Source: Escherichia coli
GTDB lineage: Bacteria > Pseudomonadota > Gammaproteobacteria > Enterobacterales > Enterobacteriaceae
Strand: one strand, 5' to 3'
Assembly (NCBI RefSeq): GCF_044324875.1
Contig: NZ_CP172185.1
DNA: 64,000 nucleotides
The notes beneath the pieces are model-generated. The model had not been told where the DNA came from and made no database searches. It worked only from the letters and a program-made list of their open reading frames with translations. Shown here piece after piece: positions 48,001 to 51,882 of this stretch. Every line of letters starts with the position of its first letter. Positions within the stretch are counted from its first letter, which is position 1. The position numbers and the translations under genes are program-made.

Positions 48001-48235
48001 TTTTCTTCCTCTAATTATATGTAAATCCTATGGATTTTGAATTTAGGGAAGGCGGCAAGTTTATTCATCCCCGGGAGCTTACTGAAGTAAGTGACCGGGG
48101 TGAAGAAACGCAGCCAACGCACCATAAATTTAAAAGACGAAGGATTTTAGCCGTCCAGATGTTTACACATCCATAATTGGCGGTTACTGTATATTCCTCA
48201 AGCGCAAATTATTCATGCCGAAGTGAAGGACTTTC
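48001..48235. promoter_or_regulatory. Divergent metE/metR control region (expected MetR and MetJ sites)
   Basis: Intergenic region between divergent metE and metR; met-box-like agacg/gtccagatgtttacacatcc sequences; sites not mapped precisely. Confidence 0.4.
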
Positions 48236-49189
48236 ATGATCGAAGTAAAACATCTGAAAACGCTACAAGCGTTGCGGAACTGCGGCTCGCTCGCAGCCGC
48301 TGCGGCGACGTTGCATCAGACGCAATCCGCCCTGTCTCACCAGTTTAGCGATCTGGAACAACGCCTTGGCTTCCGGCTATTTGTGCGTAAGAGCCAGCCG
48401 CTTCGCTTTACACCGCAGGGAGAAATCCTGTTGCAACTGGCAAATCAGGTGCTGCCGCAAATCAGCCAGGCACTGCAAGCCTGCAATGAACCGCAGCAGA
48501 CGCGTCTGCGCATTGCCATCGAGTGCCATAGCTGTATTCAGTGGCTGACGCCCGCGTTAGAAAATTTCCATAAGAACTGGCCGCAGGTCGAGATGGACTT
48601 TAAATCGGGCGTGACGTTTGACCCGCAGCCTGCGTTGCAACAGGGCGAGCTGGATCTGGTGATGACGTCAGATATTCTGCCGCGCAGTGGCCTGCATTAT
48701 TCGCCGATGTTCGATTATGAAGTGCGTCTGGTGTTGGCACCTGACCATCCGCTGGCGGCGAAAACGCGTATTACACCGGAAGATCTCGCCAGCGAGACGC
48801 TGTTGATTTATCCGGTGCAGCGTAGTCGACTGGATGTCTGGCGGCATTTTCTTCAGCCAGCAGGCGTCAGCCCGTCACTGAAAAGCGTCGATAACACCTT
48901 ATTGTTGATTCAGATGGTTGCCGCGCGGATGGGTATTGCCGCACTACCGCATTGGGTGGTGGAGAGTTTTGAACGCCAGGGTCTGGTGGTGACCAAAACC
49001 CTGGGCGAAGGCTTGTGGAGCCGACTGTACGCCGCCGTGCGCGATGGCGAGCAGCGTCAGCCGATTACAGAAGCGTTTATTCGCTCAGCGCGCAATCACG
49101 CCTGCGATCATCTGCCGTTTGTGAAGAGCGCGGAGCGACCCACTTACGATGCACCCACAGTGAGGCCAGGATCACCAGCGCGCCTGTAA
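48236..49189 (+). CDS. metR: LysR-family transcriptional activator MetR
   Basis: 317-aa ORF with N-terminal HTH ([24 protein letters not shown]). Confidence 0.96.
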
Positions 49190-49976
49190 TAAACGTTGGC
49201 CAGTGCGGCTGTTGGTGCCAGATAGCCAGGTTTACCAGCAGCCCTGCCGGAACGTGCATATTATTCATAATGCCCAGCGTTCCGGCGTCCACCTGCGTCG
49301 CGCCGTAGTTCCACATAAAGTAGCCAATCCCGGAAGCCACCACGCCAAGAAACACCAGAATGCCCCATTGCAACGTGGTTTGCGGCATTTTCTGCGCATT
49401 TCCCAGCAAGAACCATGCAATCACCGCCACCAGGAACGCGCCAAGATAGAACCACGCAAAGGCGTTATGCTGCGGCATCGGGCGAGTTTCCATCAGACGT
49501 TTGTAACCCACCATGCCGATGGCAAAAGTGATATTGGAGAGCTGCACCAGCAGCAGGCCAGTCCAGAAGTGGTCGGTGACCTGATCATAGCGAATAATCC
49601 CGGCACCAATCACCGCCAACAAGGCGCTAAAAGCATAGCCCCAGCGCAGACGGCGCTGACTCATGATGTCATAAATCAACGTGATGTAGAGCGGCGTCAG
49701 TACGGTGAACAGCAGCAGCTCGGAGACCGTCAGGTAGAGATAGGCGCGGAAACTCAGCATATACATCACGCCGAGCTGCATCGCGCCTACCAGCATATAC
49801 AGGCCGACCGTTTTCAGGCTATTGCCACGGGTACGCAGAAACGGCAGAAAAACCAGTGCCGCCAGGCCAACGCGCACCAGCACTGCAAAATAGCTATCGA
49901 CGTGCCCCGCAAGGTACTCGCCATAAAAGCTAAAGGAGAAGGCCCACAGAATCGTGGTGATGATAAGTAGCGCCAC
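49077..49976 (-). CDS. yigM: EamA/DMT-family transporter YigM (biotin transporter BioP)
   Basis: 299-aa polytopic membrane ORF; its 3' end overlaps the metR 3' end. Confidence 0.9.
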
Positions 49977-50051: not shown

Positions 50052-50852
50052 TTACGATAAATAGAGCTTACGCAGATAATGCGGCACTGCGTCCTCGGCG
50101 TTAGTACCAATCACTTCCAGTTCCGGATGCAGATCTTTCAGACGCTGGTGCGCACTGCCCATAATGCAGCCTTTCCCCGCCATCGACAGCATTTCGGCGT
50201 CGTTCATCCCGTCACCAAACGCAATACAATCTTGCAGGCTGTAGCCCAGTTTCTTCGCCACCGCTTCCAGCGCATGACCTTTCGACACGCCGCCCGCCAT
50301 CACTTCCAGACAGGTTAAGGTAGAGAAACTGACGTTGACGCGATCGCCCCAGCGAGCGTTGATCGCCTGCTCCAGCGGCAGAAGTTGTTCATGGGAATCG
50401 CAGGTGAAGAACACTTTGCTGACGCCTTCCGGCTCCAGTAATCCCGGCTCATACAGCGCATATTTGAACACCGCTTCTTTAAAAAAGCGCATCTCTTCCG
50501 GGCGATGGCGATTCATAAACCATTCGTCGTCGCGATAAACGTTAGTAATGATGTCCGGATTGTCGTTGACTACGCCAAACAGATCGCTGGCAATGTCGCG
50601 ATCCAGGTTATGAGCAAAAATCAGATTGCCATCCAGATCGTGAACGCGCGCGCCATTGGAGGTAATCATGTAAGACTTAATCTCCAGATTATCGCGAATT
50701 TGCCCCACATCAACGTGGTGACGACCGGTCGCAAACACAAAGTTGATGCCGCGCGCGGTGAGCAGCTTCAGAGTTTCTTTGGCGTAAGGGGATAACGTAT
50801 GGTCGGGAGAAAGTAACGTGCCATCTAAATCAGACGCAACAACCTGGTACAT
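50052..50852 (-). CDS. yigL: HAD-family sugar phosphatase YigL
   Basis: Start chosen at MYQVVASDLDGTLL (HAD motif I DxDGT), 266 aa; the track ORF extends upstream into pldB. Confidence 0.92.
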   Translation of the reverse strand: MYQVVASDLDGTLLSPDHTLSPYAKETLKLLTARGINFVFATGRHHVDVGQIRDNLEIKSYMITSNGARVHDLDGNLIFAHNLDRDIASDLFGVVNDNPDIITNVYRDDEWFMNRHRPEEMRFFKEAVFKYALYEPGLLEPEGVSKVFFTCDSHEQLLPLEQAINARWGDRVNVSFSTLTCLEVMAGGVSKGHALEAVAKKLGYSLQDCIAFGDGMNDAEMLSMAGKGCIMGSAHQRLKDLHPELEVIGTNAEDAVPHYLRKLYLS

Positions 50853-50859
50853 AAGAAAT

Positions 50860-51882
50860 TTAAACCTCTGTAGAGCGGTTTCCGCTGGGTGAGTTATGCC
50901 TGTTGAAAAAATCAACGATGGCGTGGAGCGCGACTGAGCGCATTGCGTCCTTTTCAAAAAGGATCTCATGGTACGCACCTTTAATTACCAACGGCCGTCC
51001 TCCTTCGACAGGATGGCCCGCGGCAGTGCGGAGTTCACAAAAACGGTCGTGCATGCGGTTATCCACCACGCGTTCCTCTTCAGCTTGTAAGAGAAGCGTT
51101 GGCGTGGTGTCATCACCCGCACCGGCTAACACCTGTTCGCCAGCCAGAATACTTTCGCGTACCCAATGGTAGGTCGGCCCACCGACGCGAATCGTTGGGT
51201 CATCAGCATAGAAGCGTAAGTTACGTCGATATCGCTGTCTGCTGTGGGTCAGTACGTTGATAGCAAACGGCAACGCGCGCCAGCGCCCGGTGCCTATTGC
51301 ATAGCCATCACGGAAACGTGGATGCGCTTCGGCCCAGTTGAGGATCTGCCGTGCCATAAATGACGGCATACGAATCACGATCCCAAACATTGGCGCAGTT
51401 AGCGCAATGGCGTCACATACACCTGGATGGCGTTGCAGAAATAATGTGGAGATCGCACCGCCCATTGAATGTGCCAGTATATAGCGTTTACGCCACGGAC
51501 CGGGCTGAACCTCCTGTTGCCAGAATGCCGCCAGATCATCAACATAATCATTAAAGCGATTAACATGCCCGAGATGCGGATCGGCTAACAGGCGACCGGA
51601 ACGTCCCTGCCCGCGATGGTCGATGATTAAGACATCAAACCCCAAATGGAACAGGTCATAGGCCAGTTCCGCATATTTTACGTAGCTCTCAATACGCCCC
51701 GGGCAGATGACTACCACCCGGTCATGGTGCTGTGCGCGAAAACGGACAAAGCGCACCGGAATGTCATCCACACCAGTAAATTCTGCTTCATCACGCTGAC
51801 GCCAGAAATCAGTCAGCGGTCCCATGGTAAAAGCAGCAAACGCGTTTTCTCTTGTTTCCCAGTCTTTTTGCTGCTGAAACAT
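50860..51882 (-). CDS. pldB: Lysophospholipase L2
   Basis: 340-aa ORF with alpha/beta hydrolase motif AHSMGG. Confidence 0.95.
   Translation of the reverse strand: MFQQQKDWETRENAFAAFTMGPLTDFWRQRDEAEFTGVDDIPVRFVRFRAQHHDRVVVICPGRIESYVKYAELAYDLFHLGFDVLIIDHRGQGRSGRLLADPHLGHVNRFNDYVDDLAAFWQQEVQPGPWRKRYILAHSMGGAISTLFLQRHPGVCDAIALTAPMFGIVIRMPSFMARQILNWAEAHPRFRDGYAIGTGRWRALPFAINVLTHSRQRYRRNLRFYADDPTIRVGGPTYHWVRESILAGEQVLAGAGDDTTPTLLLQAEEERVVDNRMHDRFCELRTAAGHPVEGGRPLVIKGAYHEILFEKDAMRSVALHAIVDFFNRHNSPSGNRSTEV

Follow-up and report, generated by a model that had tools for sequence, protein, structure and literature searches.

Convergent genes with overlapping transcript ends are well documented in Escherichia coli. 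Overlapping 3' transcript ends were found in 276 of 370 convergent operons (Conway et al. 2014, PMC4161252), so complementary ends are the rule and not peculiar to metR and bioP. Described excludons and convergent 3' ends (Conway et al. 2014; ExcludonFinder 2025, PMC12288877; arfA/mscL, PMC10070815) likewise have no efficient terminator between the genes. The metR-bioP pair differs from excludons in that the overlap extends beyond the untranslated ends into the coding sequences. The closest described case is the same locus in K-12 MG1655, where RefSeq places bioP (b3827) at 4011076..4011975 and metR (b3828) at complement 4011863..4012816. The MG1655 genes have an identical 113-bp overlap, encode products of 299 and 317 amino acids, and lie among the same neighbors as here (pldB-yigL-bioP, then metR, then metE). 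The preliminary description of the locus had placed the same overlap in K-12, and the MG1655 annotation bears this out. The biotin transporter function of BioP, the product of yigM, was reported by Côté et al. (2016, PMC5120140), who also comment on the overlap with metR. The overlap is ordinary, is already annotated and has already been discussed in the literature.

Convergent overlapping pairs are also described in the comparative-genomics literature as products of 3' extension after the loss or displacement of a stop codon. The tails at the metR-yigM locus are of read-through length and are passengers of the opposite frame. Unlike in those 3'-extension pairs, the ends are unusually fixed with stops dictated by the partner gene, and the arrangement has been kept in at least three families of Enterobacterales. 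At 113 bp, the overlap is longer than most bacterial overlaps.

We analyzed the overlap within a 64,000-nucleotide stretch of an E. coli genome, referred to as the window (Table 1). Two open reading frames on opposite strands have common 3' ends and form a convergent (tail-to-tail) overlapping gene pair. The overlap had been put at about 110 bp, and both the list of open reading frames and the raw sequence refine this to exactly 113 bp at the same coordinates. The RefSeq annotation of an identical E. coli strain likewise has a 113-bp metR-bioP overlap. Compared with an MG1655 derivative, the locus shows strain-level substitutions only, with ~98% identity over 153 nt around the overlap. Of 5426 complete E. 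coli genomes, 5423 contain a 2.1-kb region spanning the overlap, annotated there as metE, metR, bioP (biotin transporter) and yigL. The 153 nt centered on the overlap have at least 95% identity in 5423 of the 5426 genomes, and both genes are annotated across the overlap in each sampled row of this collection. Among 5430 hits for the metR-bioP region in the E. coli genome collection, one lies on a plasmid record and not on a chromosome.

Table 1. Positions of the metR-yigM overlap, its subdivisions and nearby features, counted from the first nucleotide of the window.
Feature	Positions	Strand	Description	Basis
metR	48236-49189	+	317 aa; stop TAA at 49187-49189, second TAA at 49190-49192	ORF list, raw sequence, RefSeq of identical genome
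yigM (= bioP)	49077-49976	-	299 aa, GTG start; TAA stop read from 49079 to 49077	ORF list, RefSeq
Convergent overlap	49077-49189	both	113 bp; MetR residues 281-317, YigM residues 263-299 and stop	
yigM stop	49077-49079	-	Opposite MetR Phe281-Ile282	
metR stop and in-frame second stop	49187-49192	+	Opposite YigM Phe262-Ile263-Thr264	
Segment A	49077-49123		Constrained: MetR 281-296 (end of effector domain, last helix); passenger: YigM 286-299	
Crossover	49124-49142		19 nt, near-invariant at three codon positions; MetR K/R-S-A-E-R-P, YigM W-V-A-P-R-S	
Segment B	49143-49189		Constrained: YigM 263-279 (tenth transmembrane helix); passenger: MetR 303-317	
Published Rho termination area	49250-49450	-	K-12 4011704 (+), converted to window ~49348; coarse, from 800-nt windows	Adams et al. 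2021
Inverted repeat	49246-49254 and 49278-49286		9 bp, 23-nt loop, inside yigM	
Sub-threshold V_AS5 match	48026-48144	+	metE-metR intergenic	Rfam
yigL, mechanical ORF	50052-50978	-	308 aa from an upstream GTG; overlaps the 3' end of pldB	ORF list
yigL, RefSeq equivalent	50052-50852		266 aa	RefSeq
pldB	50860-51882			

Next to the pair, the mechanically called frame of yigL starts further upstream than the shorter RefSeq gene (Table 1). For metR and yigM themselves, a shorter true end of either gene, which would remove the overlap, is ruled out, given that stop codons set the 3' ends and that both frames are under purifying selection up to the crossover. An artefact of annotation or sequencing, with one of the frames ending earlier in reality, is hardly conceivable. 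The ends are stop codons read directly and are the same in thousands of independent assemblies, purifying selection in both frames reaches into the overlap, and deletion of metR inactivates BioP. Within the overlap, the first codon position of metR lies opposite the first of yigM, the second opposite the third and the third opposite the second. Any silent change in one gene hence causes a replacement in the other, by altering the middle position of a codon there.

Both frames encode proteins of recognizable classes. MetR is a LysR-type transcriptional regulator with the Pfam domains HTH_1 (residues 5-63, E = 4e-18) and LysR_substrate, the substrate-binding domain (residues 86-288, E = 7e-48). 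Matches in the PDB include the MetR DNA-binding domain (5fo5) and the effector domain of Neisseria MetR (4ab5), with an alignment running to residue 296. An AlphaFold2 model of MetR built on a 22-sequence alignment reached a pLDDT of 42 and was dropped, and the end of the domain was set by the PDB alignment instead. YigM matches the Pfam family EamA in two stretches, the last at residues 139-275. The AlphaFold2 model of YigM has ten helices (pTM 0.81), with a pLDDT below 50 for residues 284-299, and a sequence search of the PDB with YigM gave no match. The two EamA repeats and the ten modeled helices fit the DMT/EamA class of transporters. Pfam domains, codon-position variation in 77 species and published function together identify both frames as real genes under purifying selection, inside the overlap too.

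The selective constraint is partitioned along the overlap. A site-by-site table of variation was compiled for 77 species. Codon-position diversity outside the overlap was 0.37-0.42 at third and 0.03-0.05 at second positions, and both were ~0.18 inside. Compared with the flanks, wobble positions thus have half the diversity and second positions about five times as much. In segment A, 12 of 16 third positions of metR were variable against none of 16 second positions (77 species; Fisher p = 1.6e-5), with an amino-acid identity of 0.98 for MetR and 0.72 for YigM. Segment B shows the reverse assignment, with variation at 12 of 16 third positions of yigM (equivalent to second positions of metR) against 4 of 16 second positions of yigM. 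The amino-acid identity in segment B was 0.81 for YigM and 0.57 for MetR, compared to 0.94 for the remainder of MetR. This partition fits the structural evidence, namely the end of the MetR alignment to the PDB, the end of the last EamA stretch and the low model confidence at the C-terminus of YigM. Naturally truncated alleles are known for both proteins. YigM alleles of 284-285 aa ending in ...WVAPRSA occur in two Salmonella clusters (P0072 and P0075, with 66 and 42 members), and the YigM of a gut isolate (L062:3887) likewise ends just past the crossover at 284-285 aa. A natural MetR of 312 aa is found in Citrobacter gillenii. Sequence variation and these natural alleles suggest that the tails formed by MetR 303-317 and YigM 286-299 may be dispensable.

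An open frame of this length is in itself not improbable. Across the long open reading frames of the window, the relevant antisense frame contains 0.045 stops per codon. The next stop is reached after a median of 13 codons, and from 16% of entry points the frame is open over at least 37 codons. Chance does not account for the selection on both genes or for the deep conservation of their arrangement. The positions of the two stops are set by the partner protein. Opposite the yigM stop, the + strand reads TTA in 77 of 77 species, and all six synonymous Phe-Ile codon pairs produce a stop in the yigM frame. The metR stop is TAA or TGA in 75 of 77 species, with stops produced by 8 of 12 synonymous Ile-Thr combinations and 6 of 6 Phe-Ile combinations. 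The alternation between TAA and TGA at the metR stop is the wobble variation of yigM. Silent changes could create a premature stop at few other junctions. Among these are MetR Val296/Lys297, where a synonymous choice can produce a stop in the yigM frame, and YigM Val268-Ile269, which can produce one in the metR frame at about MetR codon 313, whereas a metR stop closer to residue 302 would take a conservative change in yigM. The constant length of 113 bp is accordingly explained by conserved residues of the partner protein pinning each stop, and selection on the overlap itself is not needed to keep the length constant.

The overlap is conserved across a large part of the Enterobacterales. A MetR scan with one genome per species recovered 80 Enterobacteriaceae loci. 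The two genes are convergent and overlapping in 80 of 80 species, by exactly 113 bp in 76, and the 1741 nt between the start codons of metR and yigM are free of indels across the 80 species. The exceptions in length are C. gillenii with 98 bp, as a result of the shorter MetR mentioned above, two species with 116 bp and one extra MetR codon, and one isolate with 68 bp and a YigM of 284 aa. Distant relatives were found using the 57%-identical YigM of a Dickeya-like contig as query, the contig itself having been found through the cluster-representative library. The overlap measures 113 bp in Yersinia, 95 bp in Pectobacterium and 98 bp in the Dickeya-like contig. The arrangement is thus conserved in relatives, and the overlap is absent in Serratia and Erwinia. 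In Serratia marcescens (YigM 286 aa, MetR 314 aa), a gap of 36 bp separates the genes, and in Erwinia toletana a DUF1456 gene lies between metR and yigM. YigM has 299 aa in Yersinia, Chimaeribacter, Nissabacter, Pectobacteriaceae and Enterobacteriaceae, and 286-287 aa in Serratia, Gibbsiella, Chania and E. toletana. Where the genes are separate, in Serratia and Erwinia, the homology of both proteins stops at the crossover. YigM there ends in ...WVAP-KQIG or ...WII-GKPVGV, and MetR carries unrelated short tails after ...FVRDAxR(P). The MetR tail differs in all outgroups.

A single old origin followed by two later separations appears the most parsimonious history, based on a family-level phylogeny and on only two genomes without the overlap. 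An ancestral overlap with two losses has possible alternatives in repeated deletion and horizontal transfer. Inspection of the Serratia sequence by eye for a duplication of the overlap revealed no convincing similarity. Distant YigM homologues of Vibrio and Microbulbifer lie elsewhere in the genome and do not adjoin metR, and these homologues, together with one on another contig that is also not beside metR, were uninformative about the origin of the overlap. A degraded locus (L091, Logan SRR18107612 contig) was likewise uninformative about the overlap. The locus appears to have the yigL-yigM-metE region in fragments with no intact metR called, and may represent a genome undergoing reduction. 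Another assembly (CACSKA010000013.1), labeled 'Chryseobacterium sp. 18061', has a metR-yigM locus of the Enterobacteriaceae type, its MetR being 92% identical to that of E. coli, and is probably mislabeled or contaminated.

The conservation of the stops raises the question of true dual coding, with both C-terminal tails functional over the full 113 bp. The identical stop positions in 76 of 80 species and in Yersinia, the invariance of 49124-49142 at all codon positions, and the loss of BioP function in the Keio metR deletion would agree with such a role. The YigM tail is charged (D/R-rich) and the MetR tail has a P-x-x-P/S-P pattern, which could reflect function rather than antisense constraint. 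However, beyond the 19-nt crossover, wobble variation occurs in one frame at a time, and the MetR tail is far less conserved than the rest of the protein. Both proteins have naturally truncated alleles, and taxa without the overlap carry unrelated tails. The Keio metR deletion, by the standard Keio design, also takes half of helix 10 and is no test of the tail. Functional tails on both proteins are thus unlikely.

Transcription across the overlap appears to be terminated by factors other than an intrinsic terminator. A scan for consensus promoters and terminators found no intrinsic terminator in or near the overlap, and RNA folds of both strands contained no hairpin followed by a U-run. The overlap does not resemble a bidirectional intrinsic terminator, which would combine a G+C-rich hairpin with an A-tract on one side and a U-tract on the other. 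Fold z-scores were -2.7 for the metR 3' region and -1.45 for the opposite strand. The only perfect inverted repeat, formed by GCCGGAACG and CGTTCCGGC, lies on the metR transcript at ~60-100 nt beyond the stop codon of metR. The repeat is not followed by a T-run and is not a canonical terminator. It lies in a conserved coding stretch of yigM and may be coincidental. Rfam has no family in or near the overlap. V_AS5, the antisense RNA AS5 of Vibrio, gave a sub-threshold match in the divergent metE/metR control region (28.7 bits, gathering score 96; E = 0.002), which may represent conserved promoter or operator sequence only.

The RNA downstream of each stop is C-rich and G-poor, which is favorable for Rho. 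On the yigM-sense strand, K-12 position 4011704 is among the Rho termination regions published by Adams et al. (2021, PMC7815308, Supplementary file 2), with a Rho score of 5.07 and p = 1.3e-12. The position lies inside yigM on the sense strand of the gene, and suggests that much of the transcription on the yigM strand ends before or around the 3' end of the gene. At the resolution of 800-nt windows, the region mainly shows that transcription on the yigM strand is stopped by Rho before running far into metR. The table of Adams et al. has no Rho entry for the metR strand, and neither metR nor yigM has a curated Term-seq 3' end or a full-length transcript record in the data sets covered. Rho termination on the metR strand is probable. 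The tables of double-stranded RNA captured with p19 (Huang et al. 2020) contain none of metR, yigM, bioP, yigL and metE, the coordinate-sorted list passing from pldB to ysgA. The silence of one survey is no proof against sense-antisense pairing, as both genes are probably weakly expressed.

These data bear on a reading of metR and bioP as an excludon-like cis-antisense pair, in which convergent transcription or an RNA duplex would make the expression of the two genes antagonistic and link methionine/SAM with biotin uptake. Biotin synthesis uses up SAM, which would make such a link meaningful. Complementarity of the two mRNAs over at least 113 nt is unavoidable, no intrinsic terminator separates them, overlapping ends are frequent among convergent operons as cited at the outset, and the arrangement has been kept in three families. 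Coding constraint and pinned stops, however, fully account for the conserved overlap and its length. Serratia and Erwinia manage without the overlap, the p19 tables have no entry in the interval from yigL through yigM and metR to metE, and read-through on the yigM strand is already limited by Rho. We therefore regard an antagonistic pair as improbable. The preliminary description had raised antisense interference, which is possible in view of the complementarity and the missing intrinsic terminator, and is left unsupported by the p19 survey and by Rho termination on the yigM strand. Even less credible is the overlap as a regulatory coupler, in which MetJ/MetR-controlled transcription of metR into bioP would tune biotin import through polymerase collision, Rho or RNase III. 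If true, such a coupler would explain why the overlap was retained in three enterobacterial families.

We suggest instead that metR and yigM, both real genes and unrelated to each other, overlap passively tail to tail with pinned stops and Rho termination, which we consider the likely explanation. The suggestion builds on what was observed here, namely the exact coordinates, the wide conservation, the division of constraint between the frames and the pinning of both stops. Each protein would end with ~15 residues free of constraint from its own function, namely MetR 303-317 and BioP/YigM 286-299. Each tail would be read from the antisense of the last essential element of the other gene, these elements being transmembrane helix 10 of YigM and the final effector helix of MetR. 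The two essential segments would only abut, in the doubly constrained 19-nt crossover. The length of the overlap is frozen, given that MetR Phe281-Ile282 always produces a stop on the yigM strand and YigM Phe262-Ile263-Thr/Ile264 nearly always one on the metR strand. Such an overlap may have arisen once, early in the Enterobacterales, and later been lost in Erwinia and the Serratia group through an insertion of DNA at the crossover. In Serratia, the separation could have come about either by insertion or by deletion. Both transcripts are most likely ended by Rho shortly past each stop. As protein-coding constraint and pinned stops fully explain the sequence pattern, there is no need for a regulatory role, and the overlap likely has none.

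The main consequence of the overlap is genetic, as deleting either gene damages the other. The standard Keio deletion of metR presumably removes yigM codons from ~271 on. By the same geometry, MetR residues 288-317 would be lost in the standard Keio deletion of yigM/bioP. The geometry of the metR deletion matches the published loss of BioP, as the Keio metR deletion abolishes BioP function and the metR deletion strain responds to a BioA inhibitor as the yigM deletion strain does (Côté et al. 2016, PMC5120140). With 113 bp common to both genes, the phenotype of either knockout needs to be checked against the other gene. The locus also serves as a teaching example in which two passenger tails and partner-pinned stops suffice, without regulation, to explain a long overlap of deep conservation.
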